Source: Chloroflexota bacterium
GTDB lineage: Bacteria; Chloroflexota; Dehalococcoidia; Lucifugimonadales; UBA3495
Reading direction: 5' to 3'
Assembly: GCA_027623675.1 (NCBI GenBank)
Contig: JAQBVF010000020.1
Location: 12,440-76,439 of the forward strand
DNA length: 64,000 bases
Position numbers and translations under genes: made by a program. Each line of letters opens with the position of its first letter. The first letter of the stretch is position 1. The notes under the pieces are model-generated. The model worked only from the letters and a program-made list of their open reading frames with translations. It made no database searches and was not told the origin of the DNA. Below are positions 5,191 through 55,104 of this stretch, one piece after another.

Positions 5191-5841
5191 CTACTGGAAT
5201 GTCACGATTGGCGACAGCGGGGCCAGGTCACCACCGTTGAATTGCCCTGGAGTGGTCTTGGTGAGGATATCCACCAGAGTGCTTGCGTTGAAGGCGGAGA
5301 TGCTTTCTAAACCCAGGGGCATGGTGCCGGCAGCGCCCTCCCGCAGTTTGAACCTGACCACGGCCACGGGACCGCTTCCGGTCATGCCGTCCACGTCGAT
5401 TATCCCGGCCCAGAGGCGGCCCGGTCCCGGCGAACTGGAGTCGATGAGGGCCTTTCCGGCCAGCGTTCCCCGCTCCAATTGGGCGAATTCCAACTTGGCC
5501 GGGTCAAATGTCAGTATGAACTCCAAACTACCCACATTGCTGGCCCGGGTGGCCAGGATGGGCACGGAGATCATCTTGGGGGTCGCGACCACCACTGGAT
5601 CAGGCGCCGCCGTGGCCGTGGGAGCTGCCCTTGGGGTTGCCGTTGGCTTGCCGACCGCCGCCGGTGTGGGGGTCGAAGACCCGCCCACCCGGTCCGGGCC
5701 GCCGTCGCTGCCGCCACCTCCGCCGAGAACTCCCACGGCGAACAGGAGGCCGATCAACAGCCCTACTCCGGCGATCGACCCAACCACCCATTTCCAACTG
5801 GAGGCTAATCCAATGAACGCAACTTCCAACAACCAGCGCAT
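5191..5841 (-). CDS. Membrane-anchored cohesin-domain protein
   Basis: N-terminal hydrophobic helix, Gly and Pro/Thr/Ala linker, then ISVPI..ASNVGSLEFILTFDPAKLEF..G..GSGPVAVVRFKL, a cohesin-like beta-sandwich pattern. Confidence 0.78.
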   Translation of the reverse strand: MRWLLEVAFIGLASSWKWVVGSIAGVGLLIGLLFAVGVLGGGGGSDGGPDRVGGSSTPTPAAVGKPTATPRAAPTATAAPDPVVVATPKMISVPILATRASNVGSLEFILTFDPAKLEFAQLERGTLAGKALIDSSSPGPGRLWAGIIDVDGMTGSGPVAVVRFKLREGAAGTMPLGLESISAFNASTLVDILTKTTPGQFNGGDLAPLSPIVTFQ

Positions 5842-5896
5842 CTGCTGCTCCCCTAACTCGGCCGAGCCATGTTTGAGATTATCCGGGCATCTTTTA

Positions 5897-8773
5897 TCAT
5901 AATGGGCGCGCCATGTTTAAGATTATCCGCGCATCTTCAACAGTAACTTTGCCGTCATCGTTGACGTCTAGCGATAGGTCTGGCGTCAATAGGTTGGACG
6001 CCATCTTCAGGGCCATCAGAGCGTCCATCGCGGTGATCAGGCTGTCCCCTCCGCCGTCGCCCTGTATCTTGGTGCCCACCTTGAAGTCGGCGCCAACCAA
6101 CTCCACCGCCAACGGGCCGCTGGCAGAGTGGTTCACCAAGGCATCGGACAGTGTTATCGGGCTGACAGCCCCCTCGGAGCCAATGACCTGGAATTGCACC
6201 ACGGCGGCCGTCCCTCCAGGTCCGTCGCCCTGGGTTAGGGCAAAGCCGAACCTGACCTGTCCCCGGGTATCTGTGTCGTAGCTGAATGAGTTTGGATTCA
6301 TCCTGGACCCACGTTCCACCGCGACCACCCTCAGAGAATCGGGGTCGTAATTCATGGTGAATCCCATGCTGGTGATTCCTTCGGCCTGGTTCAACTCCAC
6401 CGGCACCCGCACGATGCTGCCGGTGGGCGACACCCGAGATTTGAGGACCAAGGCTGTGCCGCTTGGGGTGACGACCTTGGGCTGAGGTTCCGTGGCGGGC
6501 GGCTCGGGAGTCGGTTTCGTGACCTTGGGAGCAACCGGCCTGGCATCGCTCTCACGGTTCACAGTTATGTGATAGGTCCCCACGGCTTTGGCCACCCTGC
6601 CGGAGGCTGAGACGGCCAGGGTGTACCAACCGGTCGCCGGGGCCTTCCATTCCAGGGATTGGTCCAGCCCGAAGTTGGAGGTGCTGAACCCGGCGGCCTG
6701 GTTCTCCACCGAGAACCGCACGCCTTCAGCGGTGCCCAAGGTTACGTCTACGGTGTACTTAGTTCCCGCATCGGCAGGGAAACGGAAGTAGTCATAGTCG
6801 TTGGCCGGGCTGATGGCCCCGGCGATGGCGTTGCCAAAGCCGATGCGCGTGCCCTCCTCGGGCAGATCACTGTGCCGGTCTTGCAGCGTGGTGTCGGGCG
6901 TGATCTTGAGCGAGTAGGTGCCGGTGGGTTCCGCCGCCTTCGGCGAGGCTGAAACCTTTACGAAGTAGGTCGCCGAGTTTGAGGCGGTCCAGCGGACGAT
7001 ATTACTCTCCCCAAAATTTCTGGCGCCGGCTTCCGGGATGCCGTCCAGGTTGGTTACTTCCAGTGAGACCGAAGTTGCTGATCCGTAGGTCAGGTCAAAT
7101 TCGTATTCCACGCCCCGCTCGGCGGGGAAGGAGAAGTAATCCAGGTCGGATTTAGGACTGATAGCCCCTTGGTAGATGGTGCCGAAGCTGACCGGGGTGC
7201 CGCTTGCGGCTGTGTCCAGATGCCGGTCTTCCAGGCTGGTGTTCGCCGTAACCGTCAACGAATAGGTGCCGATGCCCTGGGATGCCTGCGGGGAATAAGA
7301 CACCACCACATAGAATGTTCCCGTGCTAGCCGCGGTCCAACCCAAGGCGGTGCCCAACCCGTTGGTGCTGCTCAATGTGTCACCGGCGGCGTTCTCGATC
7401 GAGATGACAGCGCCGTTGGCGGTGATCAGGTCCATGCTCACCGAATAGTTGACTCCCCGTTCCGTTGGGAAGGAGAAATAGTCGCGGTCGGTCTCCGGGC
7501 TGATGGCGCCCTGATTGGCGCTGCCAAAGCTGATGGCCGAAGCCAGGGCCGGAATCTCGCCGTGATGGTCCTGCAGCGTGGTGTCGCTGCTCAGGTTCAG
7601 CGAGTAGGTGCCAATAACATTCGGGACCTGAGGCGAGGCCGAAACTACTGCCAGATAGCTGCCGCTGGCCGGCGCAAGCCACTCCAGGCTGGTCCCCACG
7701 CCACCGTTGGAGGCCAGGCTGATCTCGTCGGTGTTAAGGATGGTCAATTCGACGCCGTCTGCGCTGCCCAGCGACACGTCGAGCATATACTTCACGCCGC
7801 GCAGGGCCGGGAACGAGAAGTAGTCCCGGTCGTCGGCGGGGCTGATGGACCCCTGGTGGGCATTGCCGAAGCTGATCACCGTTGCTCCGGCGATGGTCTG
7901 GGAATGCTGGTCCATGAGGTTAGTTTCGGCGTTCAGCTTGATCGCGTAGGTGCCGTTGGAGTCCCGCACCCGGCTGGTGCCGGTAACCGAGATGTAATAG
8001 GTATTGTCGCTGGGAGCGATCCAATCCAGGGTGTTGCCGATGCCGTCGCTGGTCTTTTCCAAGCCGTCGAAGGGAGACCGGATGGCAATCTCGACGCCCT
8101 CTGAGGTGCCCAGATCAACCTCCACGTTGTACCTCACGCCGCGCCGTGCCTGAAACGAGAAGTAATCGTAGTCGTCGCCGCCGTCCACGGTGTTGGCCAG
8201 CTTGGGCTGGTTGCTCCAAGGGCTGATGGCTCCTTGGTAGATGTTGCCCGGCGATATCTGGGTGGCCCCGTTCCGGCCTTCGGAATGGCGGTCAATGAAA
8301 CGCGTGTCCTCAAATCCGCTTAGTGTGTAATCACCGAGGTAGAAGGAGTCGTCGAAGTTGTTGATGGTGCCCGACACTTCTACGTAATAGGTGTCGGTGG
8401 TGCGGGCGGTCCAATTTACGGTCTTCCGGCCGCCTTCGATGCTCAAGTCCTGACCCGGAGACCCGCCGTTGCCTCGGGCTAGAGAATTAATGATGGCGAT
8501 ATTGGCGGCCACCACCGTGGTCTCGTCCAAAACAAAGGTATATTGGACACCGCGCTGGGCCTGGAAGGAGAAATAGTCAACGTCGAAGAGGATGTCAGAT
8601 GGGTCGATTACCCCGGCGACGGCGCCAGCGCCGATCTTGATGCTGGTTGAAGTGAACCGGTAATCGCCGTGGTCGTCGTCGGCGTAGGCAGGGTATTGGC
8701 TGGAGAAGAAAGCCGCCACAATGATCGTTAGCAGCACCAGCGTCATCGTCAGCAGATGTGTTGATTTACGCAT
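5897..8773 (-). CDS. Secreted protein with six ~120-aa PPC-like repeats, Pro-rich linker, cohesin and C-terminal dockerin
   Basis: Signal peptide ending AYA; six DxH...G(A)I(S)P..DYF(S)F.A..G..Y...W.A...YY..V..GTY repeats; VRVPVEL..GITSMGFTMNYDPDSL cohesin pattern; GDGGGDSLITAMDAL and DVNDDGKVTVEDAR dockerin duplicated loops. Confidence 0.82.
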   Translation of the reverse strand: MRKSTHLLTMTLVLLTIIVAAFFSSQYPAYADDDHGDYRFTSTSIKIGAGAVAGVIDPSDILFDVDYFSFQAQRGVQYTFVLDETTVVAANIAIINSLARGNGGSPGQDLSIEGGRKTVNWTARTTDTYYVEVSGTINNFDDSFYLGDYTLSGFEDTRFIDRHSEGRNGATQISPGNIYQGAISPWSNQPKLANTVDGGDDYDYFSFQARRGVRYNVEVDLGTSEGVEIAIRSPFDGLEKTSDGIGNTLDWIAPSDNTYYISVTGTSRVRDSNGTYAIKLNAETNLMDQHSQTIAGATVISFGNAHQGSISPADDRDYFSFPALRGVKYMLDVSLGSADGVELTILNTDEISLASNGGVGTSLEWLAPASGSYLAVVSASPQVPNVIGTYSLNLSSDTTLQDHHGEIPALASAISFGSANQGAISPETDRDYFSFPTERGVNYSVSMDLITANGAVISIENAAGDTLSSTNGLGTALGWTAASTGTFYVVVSYSPQASQGIGTYSLTVTANTSLEDRHLDTAASGTPVSFGTIYQGAISPKSDLDYFSFPAERGVEYEFDLTYGSATSVSLEVTNLDGIPEAGARNFGESNIVRWTASNSATYFVKVSASPKAAEPTGTYSLKITPDTTLQDRHSDLPEEGTRIGFGNAIAGAISPANDYDYFRFPADAGTKYTVDVTLGTAEGVRFSVENQAAGFSTSNFGLDQSLEWKAPATGWYTLAVSASGRVAKAVGTYHITVNRESDARPVAPKVTKPTPEPPATEPQPKVVTPSGTALVLKSRVSPTGSIVRVPVELNQAEGITSMGFTMNYDPDSLRVVAVERGSRMNPNSFSYDTDTRGQVRFGFALTQGDGPGGTAAVVQFQVIGSEGAVSPITLSDALVNHSASGPLAVELVGADFKVGTKIQGDGGGDSLITAMDALMALKMASNLLTPDLSLDVNDDGKVTVEDARIILNMARPL

Positions 8774-8929
8774 ACCCCTACTCCCTTCCTCCGCCACCTC
8801 GCGCTCACCACGGGGGCTGCTCCACGGTCATCTTTGGACACGCGGGACCGAATGAGCGGGCGTCCGCACACTCCCGCAGACGCGGTCAGGAGAGCAGACG
8901 TTCCGCTGTTAGCATTGAAATTTGGTTGC

Positions 8930-8959
8930 ATTTTAAGATTAATATTAAATTATAGTCAA
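8930..8959 (-). promoter_or_regulatory. Putative sigma70-type promoter of the cohesin/dockerin operon
   Basis: TTGACT-N18-TAAAAT on the minus strand within a strongly AT-rich patch about 155 nt upstream of the ATG. Confidence 0.45.
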
Positions 8960-9057
8960 TTGAATACGACACCAGATAACACGATAATCACGCGCCACCA
9001 CAAGAATGGCGAAGGATGATTGGAAGGTATTGGCGTCTGGCGGCGGGGGTGAACCGG

Positions 9058-10578
9058 TCAGGGCGCGTAGATGTCCGTTTGGGGGTAAAAAGCGTACCAG
9101 CCGAACCAGTATGCCTCCCGGCTGGGCAGCCGGTCCAAGGACCGGGCGGCGCCGTCCAGGCTGACCAGAGCGTCGTCCTCAGCCCGCCATTCCACGCCAT
9201 CCTCGTCGGTCACAACCATCATCCGGCCCGGCCCGGTCCGGGCCGGAGTGAACACATGGTTACCCCGGCCGTAGGCCCTAACCCCGCCGCCGGACCCAGG
9301 CGATAGGACGACCACGTTCTGGCCGCCCAATTCGTCGTTGAGCGCGGTTGGCGAGGCGAATACCGACAGTGGGTACGCCCTGGCTTCATCGCCGACAACG
9401 AGGCCAAAAACCGGTTCTTTGGTTTCCAACTCGGCGCTGCGCAGCGGGACCGGGAACATGGTCGTTGTCTGGTTGCGGTAGGCGAAGTAAGCGGAGTCGT
9501 TCTGGGACTCGGGGGAATAACTTTCTGCCGGATACCTGCCGGTTTCCGCGTTCAAGACGGTGGTGTCCGGGTGTTCCGCCACCCAGTCGGCCCAAAACGT
9601 GAGGGTCATGGGCAGCACCTCCAGTTCCAAGCCGCTGCCGACCAGCGGGCCAACCGCGGGCACGCCCCGAAATTGCTGCCACAGCGTCTCCGTCTTGCGG
9701 TCGTACATCAGTTTGTTGCTGCGGTAGAGGAAGCCGGAGGTGCCGAACTCCACCCTTTCGCCGTTGATCTCCGTGGAATACACGATTCCAGAGCCGCAGA
9801 GGGTTCAATAAGCCAGGGCGAAGGGCACGCCTCCCAGGATGTCGTTGGCCATCTCGTGACGGTTCAAGATGCGTAGTGGATAGGCCCGGTGCTCGCCGTT
9901 GATGGACACTCCGAAGACCCGGTCGCCCGGGAGCAGGTAATCGGCGTCTTCCGCAGAGACCACGGGTGGGTCGCTCAGGTCGGGGATGCCGTCCTTGGCC
10001 ACACCTCCCCAAACGATCTCTTCCAGCCGGATATCCGATCTCACGCCGTCATAGATGAAGCCGCCCAGACCGGGGTCCACGATGGCGTATAACCGGCCCT
10101 TCCATCCGGCGAACCCCGGCGGCGGCCGTACCTGAGGGTTGTTGCCCAGCCACTCGACCCACCACTGCCACTCATTCTGCTCTGGCGGGAAGACCATCAC
10201 GTCTTCCGGCGGCACGTTGTCTTTGAGCCGGGACAGGAAGGAGGTCATGTTGATGATGGCTTCATCGTCGTTCTGAAAGCGGAGGAACTCCAGCAGCACC
10301 GGGATGTAGGTCTGGTTCCCGGAATAAGCCATCTTGCGGGCGACCTTGGCCAGGGGCAGCTCCAGGGAGGCCAGCATCAACCCGGTAGGGTCGTCGGGCA
10401 GTCCGGTCAGGTCCACCTCTCCGGGCATCGGCTCGATGGGTATCACGGCCCCGGGCCCGGATGTGGCCGGGACGGGCGTGCCGCCTCCGCCCGGCGAACA
10501 GGCCGCCACCAAAAGCGCCGCAGCCGTCGCCGCCAGCCAGACTGGCCGCCGATGTTTTGGCTTATGAGACAACCGCAA
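9058..10578 (-). CDS. DUF3179-domain lipoprotein, putative selenoprotein (U-T-L-C)
   Basis: ORFs 9805..11088 and 9058..9783 are in one frame joined by TGA at 9805-9807: HEMANDILGGVPFALAY-U-TLCGSG..FGTSGFLYRSNKLMYDR. Lipobox LVAAC; probable TTG start at 10578 (or 10572). Confidence 0.85.
9769..9793 (-). promoter_or_regulatory. Putative bacterial SECIS hairpin of the DUF3179 gene
   Basis: CTC-TGGAAT-CGTGT-ATTCCA-CG-GAG stem-loop starting 11 nt after the TGA, with GU in the loop. Confidence 0.65.
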
Positions 10579-13810: not shown

Positions 13811-14062
13811 TCAGGCAGCTTCCCGGTCAGAGTAGGAGACGATAGAGACCTCGGTCTGAAGGGCTTTCAGCCGGGTCAGCAGAGTTGTGAGTTGATCGGT
13901 GACCTTGCCGGACACAAATGGTTCATGGCAGCTACGGCAACTCTCGGCCGGAACATCTTTAACCACGACCACCGTGCCTTCGAAAACGAAGGGCACTGCG
14001 GAAACGCCGTCTTTCAGCCGTCCACCGCACAATAGGCAGGTTTTAAGATCTTCTGATACCAA
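13811..14062 (-). CDS. YgiT-type zinc-finger protein (MqsA N-terminal-like)
   Basis: CLLCGG...VVVKDVPAESCRSCHE pattern, 83 aa, tightly packed between the mutase subunits. Confidence 0.8.
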   Translation of the reverse strand: MVSEDLKTCLLCGGRLKDGVSAVPFVFEGTVVVVKDVPAESCRSCHEPFVSGKVTDQLTTLLTRLKALQTEVSIVSYSDREAA

Positions 14063-50686: not shown

Positions 50687-53600
50687 TCAGTCGAAATGCG
50701 TGACCGCGTTCAGGGTGAAAAACCCCGCGTTACGGTAGTCCAGCGGAGGGGCCCGCAACCCGCTGATTGACTTGGCGGTCTCAAAGTCGGCCAATGACTG
50801 TTCTTGTTTTCCAAGGACGTGGTACAGGACTCCCCGGTTCGTAAAGTACGTGGCGTTTCCCGGGTCTAGTCGGATCGCTGTATCGAAATCGGTTAAGGCA
50901 GACTCGAATTCCTGGAAGGTTGCGTAGGCCTTGGCGCGTGTGTAATAGAAATTTGGCGTGTCCGGCTTGATCCGGATCGCTTCGCCTATCTCCGAAAACG
51001 CCTTATCGTACTCGCCAAAATAGGCGTAAATCTCACCACGGTCGGCGTAATGCTGTGGGCTCGGAAGTTTTAGTCCCTCAGACATATCTAGGACTTCCCG
51101 CGCGGACTCTTTCGCCTCCAACCGAGCGAGAATCTCGGCGCGAATCAAGTATGCCAAGCCAAGGTCCGGGTCCAACAAACTCGCATTTTCCGCAAGCGCT
51201 AGACCCTCCGTCAGGTTTCCAGCCGACGACTGATATTCGGCGTAATAAGCGTTGATCAGCGCATTTTGAGGAGAGCGCCTAAGCGCGGAAGCCAGGTCTG
51301 ACCGGGAGTTTCGGCCGACGATGAACCCTCCCCGGATAGTGATGTCATTCTTGAAAGCCACGAAACCTAGGGTCGCCAGCACTTCATCCATGGAGAAGCC
51401 AAGGCTATAACTTTTCTCGATGTCGTTGAAGGCAAGTGCTCCTTCTCCCGTGGCGAAGTAAGCAAGTCCCCGATAAAAGAGTGCGATCGCGTCCTCAGGG
51501 TTTTGCCTGATCTGTTCGGTGAAATAATCCACGTCGGATTCAACCCCGAGACTCGCGTGGATCTCGCGAATCAGATTGACTGCCGGCGGCGTCCCCCCTG
51601 TGGGGTAATTTATAGCGAGGCCACGTTTGAGCGTTGCGATCGCTTCTTCGTACCGTCCAAGTCCCTCCAACGCCCGTCCCTTGAGGTAGTAGGTGGGGAT
51701 CGCTAGATCTATATCGCCGGTGATCGCCAAAGAAAAGTTCAATTGGGTCAAAGCTTCTTCGTATAGGCCAACGTCTATCTGAGATTCAGCCAAGTCGTTT
51801 CGGACCGGCCATGCGTTGGGGACCATGCTGACCGCGATTGAATATAATTCTCGAGCCGCGTCATTCAACTGCAGATTGAATGCAGAGTTCGCGGCGGCGA
51901 TCCGGGCGCGATAGTTGAACGGCTGCATTTCGATAGATTCCAGGTTGGATTGCAAACTCTGGTTGGCCAGGCATACCTCATAGGGCAGGTCCACCTGCCG
52001 GCTGCATCCGGGCTCGGTGAACAAGTCGGGTTGCAGTTGATAGTTCAGGTACACCTGCGCCCGGTTGTTGTAGTAATTGGGAACACCGGGAGCCAATGCG
52101 ATGGCTTTATCAAGCTGCACCACGGTGCTATCAAGATCGCCGTCCCGAAAATATTCCAGGGCTTGGCCCTCGGCGACGGATGCTCGAACGGAATTGATGC
52201 TCTTCTGCCAAGTTACAACACCGATCCCACCGGCCAACCAGGCGACGATCGCCAATCTGAACATCAAGCCGGCGGCGCCGGACTGGGCTGATGAGGCGGA
52301 CGCCGTCCTGCGCCGGTTTCTGCGGCCCTCGCGACGAGTATTCGGAGGGGGTGCGTCGGGCACTGAGTCCTCCCGCACGCTCTCGAATCTCACCAAGGCC
52401 GCGAACACCCCGAACAAGACCCAGAGAACGGTCAGGTCAGAGACTTTTGCCACCCCGACCATCATTTCCAAAAAGCGCCCTGCGATTACGGCTGCCAACC
52501 CGAAAAGTACCAGTTGGTATACCGGGTTGGCCGTGCGCCGCCGCCGCAGTAAATGATGCCCGGCTACCCCAAATACTGTCGCGAACAGCGCCAGGGCAGC
52601 CACTCCGCCGAATATGCCTTGCTCGACCGTCTGGTGTATGAAGAAGTTGTGGGCATTGTCCGGTTCCAACGGCAGAAAGTTAAATTCATCAGGCGGGCTT
52701 TCTAGAAGATAGGTATACCTGAATAGGTCCGGCCCGTAGCCAACCAGCGGCCTTAGCCAACGAAAATGAAGCTCATCAAATTCGAACCAAGGGCGGTGTT
52801 TGATCAGCTCCCACGACACTTTCCAGTGGGTACCCCTGCCACCGATGAATCCACCCAGAACATCGGTCTTGATCGATCCGATCCTTTGGGTGAGTTGGGC
52901 GGCCGTTGAGCCGGAGTCTCCTCCTCCGCCGGAGGATTCGGCTGCCCCTCTATTCGCCAAGGCGGAGGGACCGATAACCACCGCGCCTGCTATCACAACC
53001 GCCGCTCCCAATGCCACGATCAATACGGTTGCCCGCGCGAACCGCCGGATGACGAGCAGCGTTACGTAGGCGCCGGCCAGGCCTAGTAACATGATGACGG
53101 CGCCCAGCCACGGGCCGGCATTGACGATGCTTACGTTCCCTTGCAGGTGCAGAAACCCGGCCAGGAGAATGCCGGCAAGGCCCACGATCAAGCTTGTTCG
53201 TATCAGCGTTCTTAGCCCCATTGAGACGGCAATAAGGCCTAGAAAGACGACTATCGCCAACACCGCTCCGCCCCAAGGGCCCCTAGAGAAGGTGAACATC
53301 AAACCCAGGAGCTGAACGCTCAATATCAGGGCCCAAAGGGCTGTGGCGACCGTGTCCTTTTCCAACTGCCCCAATCTTCGCAACGGACCCAGATCAGCCC
53401 AGTTCTCATGGTGGAGATTTATCACGGCAACCATGATGGTTACGGGGATCGTCATGGCCAAGACCGCCCCCGCGAAGATGGTGTTGCCCATGAAAATGGT
53501 GACCCGTGCCGATCCTCCGCCTGTTTCTTCCGTGAGGCCTAAAAAGTCGTTGCCGTAATGCTGCATCACGCCATAGGAGCCGACCACAACGCCCATCAGA

Positions 53601-54163
53601 ACCACCACCCCCAGTAACCGGCCCAGTTGCGCGGGAGTTCGTAGGTGGGTTGCCATCACCGAGAACAAAACTCCGTAGGAGGCTACGGTATAAAGGGCAT
53701 ATCCATCCTGCCCAGGAATCTCGCCCCAGAGACTGTTGATGGGCGAGCCCGAGAGCGCCGTGCTCAGCAGCGTGGAACCGAAAAATAACCCAGCGGCGAA
53801 CACCAACCAATGTATCGGGTGGACGTTCAACCAATTCTTGAGGCCGGCAGCGACCCGGAACGGATGAAGTTTTCTGGCTAGATCGCCGGGCGATGAGGCG
53901 GTGAATGAGCCTTGGAACGCACCGCCTTTGATGGCCCATTCCAAGGCCCATAGCAGGGCGATCAACCCAGCCAGGGTCCGCAGCAGAGCGACCTTGGGCA
54001 CTTCTACATAGGCTATCTGGGCCTCGGAAACGGCGTAATCCTGGCCCAGGAACACCAGCGGCACAAGCAACACCGCCGAAAGCCATAGACTTTCCAGTCC
54101 CAAACTGATCCGCGGCAACAGCGAAGCGCCCGTCGAGGGAGATGTTGAAGTTGAAGTCGTCAA
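50687..54163 (-). CDS. O-antigen ligase-like membrane protein fused to TPR repeats
   Basis: Multiple TMs, GN, TFSRGPW, GYGPD.F, AHN..E.G motifs; C-terminal TPR array. Confidence 0.85.
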   Translation of the reverse strand: MTTSTSTSPSTGASLLPRISLGLESLWLSAVLLVPLVFLGQDYAVSEAQIAYVEVPKVALLRTLAGLIALLWALEWAIKGGAFQGSFTASSPGDLARKLHPFRVAAGLKNWLNVHPIHWLVFAAGLFFGSTLLSTALSGSPINSLWGEIPGQDGYALYTVASYGVLFSVMATHLRTPAQLGRLLGVVVLMGVVVGSYGVMQHYGNDFLGLTEETGGGSARVTIFMGNTIFAGAVLAMTIPVTIMVAVINLHHENWADLGPLRRLGQLEKDTVATALWALILSVQLLGLMFTFSRGPWGGAVLAIVVFLGLIAVSMGLRTLIRTSLIVGLAGILLAGFLHLQGNVSIVNAGPWLGAVIMLLGLAGAYVTLLVIRRFARATVLIVALGAAVVIAGAVVIGPSALANRGAAESSGGGGDSGSTAAQLTQRIGSIKTDVLGGFIGGRGTHWKVSWELIKHRPWFEFDELHFRWLRPLVGYGPDLFRYTYLLESPPDEFNFLPLEPDNAHNFFIHQTVEQGIFGGVAALALFATVFGVAGHHLLRRRRTANPVYQLVLFGLAAVIAGRFLEMMVGVAKVSDLTVLWVLFGVFAALVRFESVREDSVPDAPPPNTRREGRRNRRRTASASSAQSGAAGLMFRLAIVAWLAGGIGVVTWQKSINSVRASVAEGQALEYFRDGDLDSTVVQLDKAIALAPGVPNYYNNRAQVYLNYQLQPDLFTEPGCSRQVDLPYEVCLANQSLQSNLESIEMQPFNYRARIAAANSAFNLQLNDAARELYSIAVSMVPNAWPVRNDLAESQIDVGLYEEALTQLNFSLAITGDIDLAIPTYYLKGRALEGLGRYEEAIATLKRGLAINYPTGGTPPAVNLIREIHASLGVESDVDYFTEQIRQNPEDAIALFYRGLAYFATGEGALAFNDIEKSYSLGFSMDEVLATLGFVAFKNDITIRGGFIVGRNSRSDLASALRRSPQNALINAYYAEYQSSAGNLTEGLALAENASLLDPDLGLAYLIRAEILARLEAKESAREVLDMSEGLKLPSPQHYADRGEIYAYFGEYDKAFSEIGEAIRIKPDTPNFYYTRAKAYATFQEFESALTDFDTAIRLDPGNATYFTNRGVLYHVLGKQEQSLADFETAKSISGLRAPPLDYRNAGFFTLNAVTHFD

Positions 54164-54318
54164 ATTAACGTTTGGTTCTCGGTCTGCCGCAGAGATTCTC
54201 TATTCTGGCCGACGAGGCGAGAACGGAAATGGCCACTCACAGATTGAGCGGCCATTGGATGGCAGATTCACAAACGGGGATCGAGCTTTGATGCCAAACC
54301 GTGTTTGCGGTATACGCT

Positions 54319-55104
54319 CTATCGATCGTCATTTTCCGTGTCCGTAGGCGTGGGTTCGGAATTTTCGCCGGTCGCTTCCGGTGCCGCGGATTTTGACTTG
54401 TAGAGACCCGCCAGCTTGGTCTTGCCCGACCGATGGTCCCAGCGCGCAATCACCGTGTTCCACACCGACAACGAGATTAACCAGGCATCCAGGAATGGGC
54501 TTCTCCTCTGGATGTACTCCATATCGTAGCGGAATTTGGTGTACGGGTCGTCGCTCTTGTCATAGATCTGGGCTAGTCCAGTTAGCCCCGGCCTTACCTG
54601 AAGCCGCTTTTCAAACCCCGGGATGAGTTCTTCCAGAGAGCGCTGCTCGTCCACCCCCAATGCTCTGGGTCCGACGAAGCTCATCTTGCCTTGCCAGATG
54701 CTGATGATCTCGGGAAGTTCGTCCAGCGCTGTCCTCCGGAGGATCCGGCCGACACGGGTGATTCTTGGATCGTGGTCGGTTGTCCATGCGGGCCCTTGAT
54801 TTTCCGCGTCTACAATCATGGTCCGGAATTTTATGACCCTGAACGAGACACCGTTCAGGCCCATTCGCTGTTGCTTGTAAAACACTGGGCCGCGGTCACC
54901 CAGCCAAATAAGAAGGGGAATAACGGTCCATAACACCAGCCACAGGGGCAGCAGAAGGATGTGGGAGGAGATTAATACCGATAGATCGAACCAACGCTTG
55001 TAGGCGCTTTGCTTGGTCCGGTGGCGGGGGTTTTGGTCTTCGGGCCGCCCGATGCCGGGGTCGGTTACTTGGCCCCCCGTGCGGTGGTGTTCAGGTTCAC
55101 TCAA
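54319..55104 (-). CDS. Bacterial sugar transferase (initiating phosphoglycosyltransferase)
   Basis: KRWFD, KFRTM, DPRITRVG..LR..LDELP, MSFVGPR, RPGLTGLAQ. Confidence 0.92.
   Translation of the reverse strand: MSEPEHHRTGGQVTDPGIGRPEDQNPRHRTKQSAYKRWFDLSVLISSHILLLPLWLVLWTVIPLLIWLGDRGPVFYKQQRMGLNGVSFRVIKFRTMIVDAENQGPAWTTDHDPRITRVGRILRRTALDELPEIISIWQGKMSFVGPRALGVDEQRSLEELIPGFEKRLQVRPGLTGLAQIYDKSDDPYTKFRYDMEYIQRRSPFLDAWLISLSVWNTVIARWDHRSGKTKLAGLYKSKSAAPEATGENSEPTPTDTENDDR

Follow-up and report, generated by a model that had tools for sequence, protein, structure and literature searches.

The subject here is a pair of adjacent genes in a 64,000-nucleotide stretch (the window) of contig JAQBVF010000020.1 from a Chloroflexota bacterium (assembly GCA_027623675.1; Dehalococcoidia, Lucifugimonadales), encoding a large protein that ends in a cohesin and a dockerin (P0001) and a small, predicted membrane-anchored cohesin protein (P0002). 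The pair is real, conserved and uncharacterised in its lineage; what is directly observed is which domains there are and in what order, that the genes are adjacent and conserved, and that the two cohesin binding faces are conserved differently. Because the cohesin of the small protein (cohesin B) keeps invariant binding-face residues, it is the likely receptor of the dockerin, and the large protein is likely to be anchored there; the sequence-only reading, which had proposed such anchoring, is thus borne out as far as sequence can tell. For the arrangement as a whole we hold, with moderate confidence, that cohesin B catches the dockerin and displays the six PPC repeats of the large protein, while the cohesin of the large protein (cohesin A) would serve as a rigid spacer.

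Folds, binding faces and co-occurrence

The two open reading frames (ORFs) are co-oriented with 55 bp between them, at 8773-5897 for P0001 (958 amino acids; predicted secreted; six PPC repeats, linker, cohesin A, dockerin) and 5841-5191 for P0002 (216 amino acids; predicted membrane-anchored cohesin). Positions are those of the window, and all window features located here lie on the minus strand. Cohesin A (residues ~773-900; 6074..6457) shows the full type I-like fold, its binding face being remodelled, and is abutted by the type I-like dockerin (residues 905-958; 5900..6061); the sequence-only reading had placed the two correctly, at ~6080-6455 and ~5900-6062. Its proposed Pfam check held for the cohesins, as PF00963 matches P0001 residues 775-882 with 55.8 bits and P0002 residues 91-201 (profile positions 16-137) with 29.9 bits against a cut-off of 24.1. 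It did not hold for the window dockerin, which scores 15.9-19.7 bits with PF00404, below the cut-off of 22.9 that 21/22 orthologous dockerins clear. An AlphaFold model of P0001 residues 770-958 (56 sequences; predicted local distance difference test, pLDDT, 91.3; predicted template modelling score, pTM, 0.83) confidently predicts cohesin A and dockerin as one unit, in which the two Ca-binding loop-helix repeats of the dockerin have their helices at 915-925 and 945-954. Structure comparison, with matches within 1 Z of each other counted as ties, placed the Archaeoglobus fulgidus cohesin 2XDH first for cohesin A (Z 17.9, root-mean-square deviation (rmsd) 2.4, 136 aligned), and cohesin A aligns to solved cohesins from chain residue ~2-4, so its N-terminal strand 1 is present (nine strands).

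P0002 opens with an N-terminal helix carrying a hydrophobic membrane anchor (residues ~1-39; 5725..5841), read from sequence and alignment and modelled as a helix at 2-35. A Gly/Pro/Thr/Ala stalk of variable length follows (5575..5724; from the alignment, pLDDT < 50), and then cohesin B (residues ~90-216; 5194..5574), with invariant face residues, no strand 1 and a conserved extra C-terminal strand. The P0002 model is poorer than that of the dyad (pLDDT 68), and its first match is again 2XDH (E 1.8e-8; Z 13.9 and rmsd 2.0 over 112 aligned residues, which cover 17-155 of 2XDH). Both proteins have the jelly-roll cohesin fold together with a Pfam score above the cut-off. Cohesin B aligns to solved type I cohesins only from the second strand on. 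A strand-9 pattern at 197-204 is the top window in 25/27 alignment rows, and one more conserved strand, with an invariant Pro, comes after it. Circular permutation or strand exchange is therefore possible, and the extra strand may replace strand 1, yet in the model it is this last strand that fills the strand-9 position, with low confidence (pLDDT ~47-55). In a strand-1 profile test, a weak one with low scores, the C-terminal strand was among the top three windows in 25/27 rows. Cohesin B gave 16 weak multi-domain matches among longer proteins and no fused form, which is weak evidence.

The binding faces were compared in 21 paired loci at 17 positions picked by homology and strand alternation. 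In cohesin B, G104, S105, E107, W144, D149 and L189 are found in 21/21 loci; in the alignment these residues sit on the strands used for binding in CipA and 2XDH, E107 falling on the Asp of the CipA strand-3 motif, and cohesin B equals 2XDH at the strand-3 G-S, strand-5 L-x-D and strand-6 G-I-x-D motifs. At the same six columns cohesin A has, respectively, T in 15, S in 4 and N in 2 loci; S in 18 (three others); G in 18 and E in 3; R in 19 (two others); V in 8, S in 7, A in 4, L in 1 and E in 1; and eight different residues. Where 2XDH has G/N/D/D/D, cohesin A has T/G/S/L/H, and the 2XDH-type face is not kept. In CipA numbering, position 86 holds five different residues in cohesin A. Position 39, the column of E107, whose Asp touches a dockerin loop in the cohesin described in PMC4728124 (like all PMC-numbered sources here, cited from extracts), is Gly in 18/21. 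Face conservation in cohesin B is 0.73 vs 0.54 at other surface columns (p=0.007; with one locus per genus, p=0.037), and in cohesin A 0.57 vs 0.48 (p=0.09; with one locus per genus, 0.068). Within each genome A and B have only 1-4/17 face residues in common, against 20-34% overall identity.

The pair was sought in 60 relatives, with carrier genomes 78-96% complete and counts by Pfam, which may overlook divergent dockerins. Strong P0002 matches occur in 17/19 genomes of the same genus, 5/17 from other genera of the family and 0/24 from other families, and five further genomes match it only weakly (E 3e-5 to 9e-4). The dockerin is present in the same 22/60 relatives, and the two genes are adjacent in 22/22, which upholds the two-gene unit that had been read from the letters alone. 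The nearest named loci belong to Dehalococcoidia and Chloroflexota metagenome-assembled genomes (MAGs), in keeping with the SAR202/Dehalococcoidia placement suggested earlier. The pair is found in six genera at one chromosomal position, followed by an HbpS-like gene in 12/13 loci examined; this neighbour and a guanine-plus-cytosine (GC) content like that of the flanks indicate that it is vertically kept. Carriers show one dockerin in 19/22, exactly two cohesins in 19/22 and both in 17/22, leaving cohesin B without another visible ligand in these 17. A second Pfam dockerin match occurs in 3/22 carriers, one of them probably the same gene on two contigs, and further cohesin genes in only 2/22. 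Like this genome, with its second pair described below, genomes G005, G008 and G016 have extra cohesin genes.

Proposed display of the secreted protein and rival explanations

In the proposed mechanism, both proteins would be exported by Sec, the large one being cleaved and the small one kept by its N-terminal anchor with its C-terminus outside. Ca2+ would fold the dockerin, and probably the PPC repeats too. The dockerin would pair 1:1 with cohesin B, probably in a single orientation because its two repeats are unlike at recognition positions 10/11 (A-L vs I/P/V-D/E). The dyad of cohesin A and dockerin would form a stiff base, akin to the X module of type II dockerins, from which the PPC array would point outward and bind an extracellular polymer or surface. 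Anchoring in the membrane would suit this bacterium, as no match to PF00905 (penicillin-binding protein) was found in its genome. Since its face residues are replaced and at most a few are shared with B, cohesin A is more probably a rigid spacer than a socket for self-polymerisation.

Several points weigh against this account. The window dockerin lacks one Ca ligand, as position 3 of Ca loop 1 is Gly where 35/35 database homologues and 21/21 orthologues from the loci have Asp or Asn, and this rare Asp-to-Gly change explains its low Pfam score. A sequencing error is not supported, the Gly codon letters being the same in contigs of 2/2 sequencing runs, which are possibly the source of this DNA. 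The face positions were picked with the conservation table already known, which leaves the p-values unblinded, and a single genus supplies 15 of the 21 paired loci. Some face residues of cohesin A are still moderately conserved (S802, R841, G843, T874, S876), and its overall conservation (0.54) is near that of B (0.58), a level that spacer function alone would not demand. In most carriers cohesin A has no other visible client, and there are precedents for self-binding: dockerin 2375 of A. fulgidus was paired with the cohesin 2375 of its own protein in designer cellulosomes, according to the extract of PMC3520109, and in Ruminococcus flavefaciens the dockerin of ScaH binds the cohesin of the same protein, ScaH serving as a spacer of variable length (PMC5301203, PMC12270676, PMC12484212). 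Finally, the P0002 gene is split in two pieces in 2/22 carriers (loci L033 and L046; genomes G006 and G012), a split that either an assembly error or decay could explain.

The best surviving rival, though an improbable one, is an anchored self-stacking filament, in which B would hold the first copy and each cohesin A would take the dockerin of the next. The result would be a Ca-dependent, PPC-decorated stalk of variable length, and the unlike dockerin halves could serve B and A. The lack of a second visible dockerin in 19/22 carriers, with cohesin A kept and complete in fold in all six genera, speaks for it, as do both precedents; binding in cis is unlikely, given a gap of only ~4 residues between cohesin A and the dockerin. 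The sequence-only reading had put such head-to-tail chaining forward, and it now appears weakly supported: neither the acidic residues that B and 2XDH have at 39 and 86 nor their aromatic-Asp pair on strand 8 are present in cohesin A, and the faces of A and B differ almost throughout. Covariation across 119 cohesin-dockerin dyads (effective number of sequences, Neff, 52) gives cohesin A residues 804 with dockerin 945 (z 4.4) and 841 with 942 (z 4.3) as top inter-domain pairs, which would suit self-binding. The comparison of face with recognition positions is null, however (p=0.79), and the top pairs are driven by clade or gaps, the 804 signal tracking clades (31/32 rows with Gly at position 39 fall in one 41-row clade). 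In a quick tree of the same dyads, the other clades each hold to one kind of residue at position 39 (22/22 D/E, 26/29 N, 17/17 G), whereas the 17-row clade with the SAR202 PPC proteins has 8 G, 3 D/E and 6 other residues. The strand-1 Arg of cohesin A is present in 95/119.

The orthologues of 1091-1097 amino acids (L011:404-3697, L012:5968-9261 and L013:2532-5807) seem one repeat longer, and PPC repeat number thus appears to vary. The same lineage retains Glu at cohesin A position 39 and would be the best candidate for self-binding by cohesin A. Slightly less probable still is the fuller version, a self-stacking PPC filament rooted on a circularly permuted membrane cohesin through one asymmetric dockerin with two specificities. 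Were polymerisation true, it would be a pilus-like appendage made from cellulosome parts in the peptidoglycan-less SAR202. The novelty earlier claimed for self-stacking was overrated, as the extracts on ScaH already describe a self-stacking adaptor. By analogy with it self-polymerisation itself would follow a known principle, and a new one could be claimed only if polymerisation were shown.

Less probable again is an adaptor of the ScaC type that switches specificity, whose dockerin would sit on cohesin B while cohesin A takes another partner, such as a divergent dockerin (that on contig C39, for example), the dockerin of another cell or a non-dockerin protein. It would account for the moderate conservation of the cohesin A face in its own right, unlike that of B, and this genome (91% complete; two dockerin candidates, five cohesin matches in four genes) does hold a second dockerin, faint to Pfam (E 0.08; PDB dockerin match E 0.003), with recognition residues unlike those of the window dockerin. 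Pfam barely sees it, so hidden dockerin clients are possible. Its gene on contig C39, however, adjoins that of its own two-cohesin, C-terminally anchored partner, and extra cohesin genes and second Pfam dockerins are confined to the 2/22 and 3/22 carriers given above. Recruitment of other dockerin proteins, as proposed from the sequence alone, is accordingly poorly supported; the suggested genome-wide count turned up the different dockerin on C39 in this genome and only one dockerin in 19/22 carriers.

The C39 genes form a second, unrelated cohesin-dockerin pair (L008:8872-12341; G000:C39 ~50870-54340, minus strand), the first protein (583 amino acids) comprising an N-terminal domain without a Pfam match, a cohesin and an atypical C-terminal dockerin, and the next (569 amino acids) two cohesins and a C-terminal membrane anchor. 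A strict dockerin-loop pattern matched only the window dockerin among 27,035 open frames and missed the C39 dockerin, which marks the pattern as insensitive. The combination of a multi-cohesin scaffoldin and many dockerin-bearing glycoside hydrolases that makes a cellulosome was not found in this genome, which is 91% complete.

The weakest rival, that the large protein is released or otherwise held and the pair merely shares an operon or is a decaying copy, could draw on the sub-threshold dockerin with its Gly, on the missing strand 1 of cohesin B and on the low-confidence C-terminal part of its model, but is quite unlikely given strict co-occurrence and adjacency in 22/22 carriers, the invariant face of cohesin B and the invariant Ca-loop aspartates of the dockerin family alignment.

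Repeats, transcription signals and neighbouring genes

The large protein, whose homologues show 47-79% identity, begins with a Sec-type signal peptide (residues 1-31; 8681..8773) recognised by eye from a basic n-region, a hydrophobic core and an A-x-A site, a pattern that recurs, also read by eye, in loci L009-L014. Six PPC or collagen-binding-domain-like beta-sandwich repeats follow (residues ~32-742; 6548..8680), opened by D-x-H motifs at residues 33, 161, 288, 402, 516 and 632. They are ~115 residues long and 29-46% identical to repeat 6. With PF04151 (PPC; cut-off 25.9) the protein as a whole reaches 37.9 bits, and the Atlas feature matches at 0.95 for the repeats are PPC clusters. In the PDB, the repeat profile comes closest to the collagen-binding domains of ColG and ColH (E 4e-5 to 1e-2); these matches give the fold and not the ligand, and collagen binding is not implied because the similarity is low. 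A Pro/Thr/Glu-rich linker (residues ~743-772; 6458..6547), recognised from the sequence, leads to cohesin A. Elsewhere in Dehalococcoidia, three large proteins with Pro/Thr stalks and a helical-type repeat ('W..DG') are encoded side by side at L015:1000-9277. Two of the three terminate in PPC-like domains, and none gave a cohesin match with either P0001 or P0002.

The promoter-like patch noted earlier upstream of the pair corresponds to a sigma70-like site at 8959-8930 (10/12 match), inside a conserved, AT-rich, partly palindromic block; the promoter scan returned four sigma70-like sites vs 1.4 +/- 1.0 in shuffled sequence. The AT-rich block around the site is kept in 6/8 aligned upstream regions. 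The near-palindromic AT-rich block that overlaps the promoter (8920-8960) is shared by six genomes from the genus or its near relatives and may be a regulator site. The downstream terminator of the sequence-only reading stands in part: at 5149-5112 there is a hairpin with a 10 bp stem and a 15-nucleotide loop followed by a U tract, and hairpins of differing sequence occur at the equivalent place in 5/6 aligned loci, judged by eye. The hairpin was not among the calls of the terminator scan, which missed it because of the 15-nucleotide loop, and its fold has a z-score of only -1.61 for a 91-nucleotide stretch.

As had been noted, no glycoside hydrolase lies nearby: none of the 13 neighbouring ORFs scanned (1-16.6 kb of the window), which are metabolic or redox genes, has such a domain, and PF00150 has no match in the genome (91% complete). 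The GC content of the pair is 0.60-0.63, as in the flanks, apart from the promoter; together with the HbpS-like gene downstream in nearly all loci examined, this led us to reject a foreign island. Upstream of the pair, a DUF3179 gene (9058-10461) reads as one frame through a single in-frame TGA. Its product is probably a selenoprotein, because the TGA stands in a stop-x-x-Cys motif and selA is present in the genome, while a search for a selenocysteine insertion sequence (SECIS) fold gave none that was convincing (z 0.38). A small ORF at 13811-14062, between mutase and B12-binding genes, has a weak match to an MqsA-type zinc ribbon (E 5e-4).

Comparison with known systems

Non-cellulosomal cohesins and dockerins are described as widespread with unclear roles (extract of PMC9012536), and the extract of PMC6394049 had nothing further about specificity. 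A search of mainly openly accessible literature showed, among the papers listed, none on a cohesin-dockerin pair in SAR202 or Dehalococcoidia. SAR202 is abundant in the ocean; its isolates are monoderm, without peptidoglycan genes, and have a visible outer layer of unknown make-up, according to the extract of PMC10444878. The pair is a specific candidate for a surface adhesin in this group. Its minimal closed set of one dockerin and two cohesins offers a clean test case for non-cellulosomal cohesin-dockerin function, and it may yield an orthogonal binding pair that is new, as well as a cohesin of apparently unusual strand order.

The arrangement of an abutting cohesin and dockerin is a common C-terminal tag, found in 119 of the best 150 representatives. 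These widespread, uncharacterised dyads have the same abutting arrangement and dockerin signature as the window protein, and 72/119 retain D or N at position 39. In 54 chosen members the cargo included LamG (8), PPC (6), carboxypeptidase-regulatory-like (4), FecR (3), and TSP3, F5/8 and PKD domains (2 each), which are lectin-, adhesion- or Ig-type cargo. In the PPC repeats of the window protein, the part matched to clostridial ColG and ColH (PF04151) includes the D-x-D-Y-F motif and an acidic segment at the N-terminus; unlike those proteins, the window protein has six copies and no peptidase domain.

Within cellulosomes the nearest parallel is ScaH, with one cohesin and one dockerin, and its anchor ScaE (PDB 8AJY), since ScaH is likewise held on a surface cohesin. 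ScaH and ScaE are, however, type III modules of a cellulosome, whereas the pair here has a type I-like fold, no cellulase and cohesin faces unlike each other; 8AJY chain C ranks 50th among structural matches of the model of P0001 residues 770-958 (Z 11.9).

The kinship with A. fulgidus ORF2375/ORF2376 suggested by the sequence-only reading is upheld. There, too, the genes are in tandem, a cohesin abutting a C-terminal dockerin being followed by a cohesin protein, and 2XDH is the best sequence match of both cohesins and their best or tied-best structure match. 2XDH can be identified as the ORF2375 cohesin from the primers that PMC3520109 gives for cloning: their translation, made by hand, agrees with both ends of 2xdh_A and overlaps where the dockerin starts. 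The extract of PMC9705933 states that AfDoc75 binds AfCoh76, the cohesin of the neighbouring gene. The pair here differs in its bacterial host and its cargo of six PPC repeats, in an in-protein cohesin that has lost face residues kept by 2XDH, and in a partner cohesin without strand 1 that is carried by a membrane stalk. With the face of the in-protein cohesin remodelled and the strand order of the anchor cohesin apparently unusual, it is best regarded as a variant, which by analogy would work like the Archaeoglobus pair or as a minimal anchoring scaffoldin for a single cargo.

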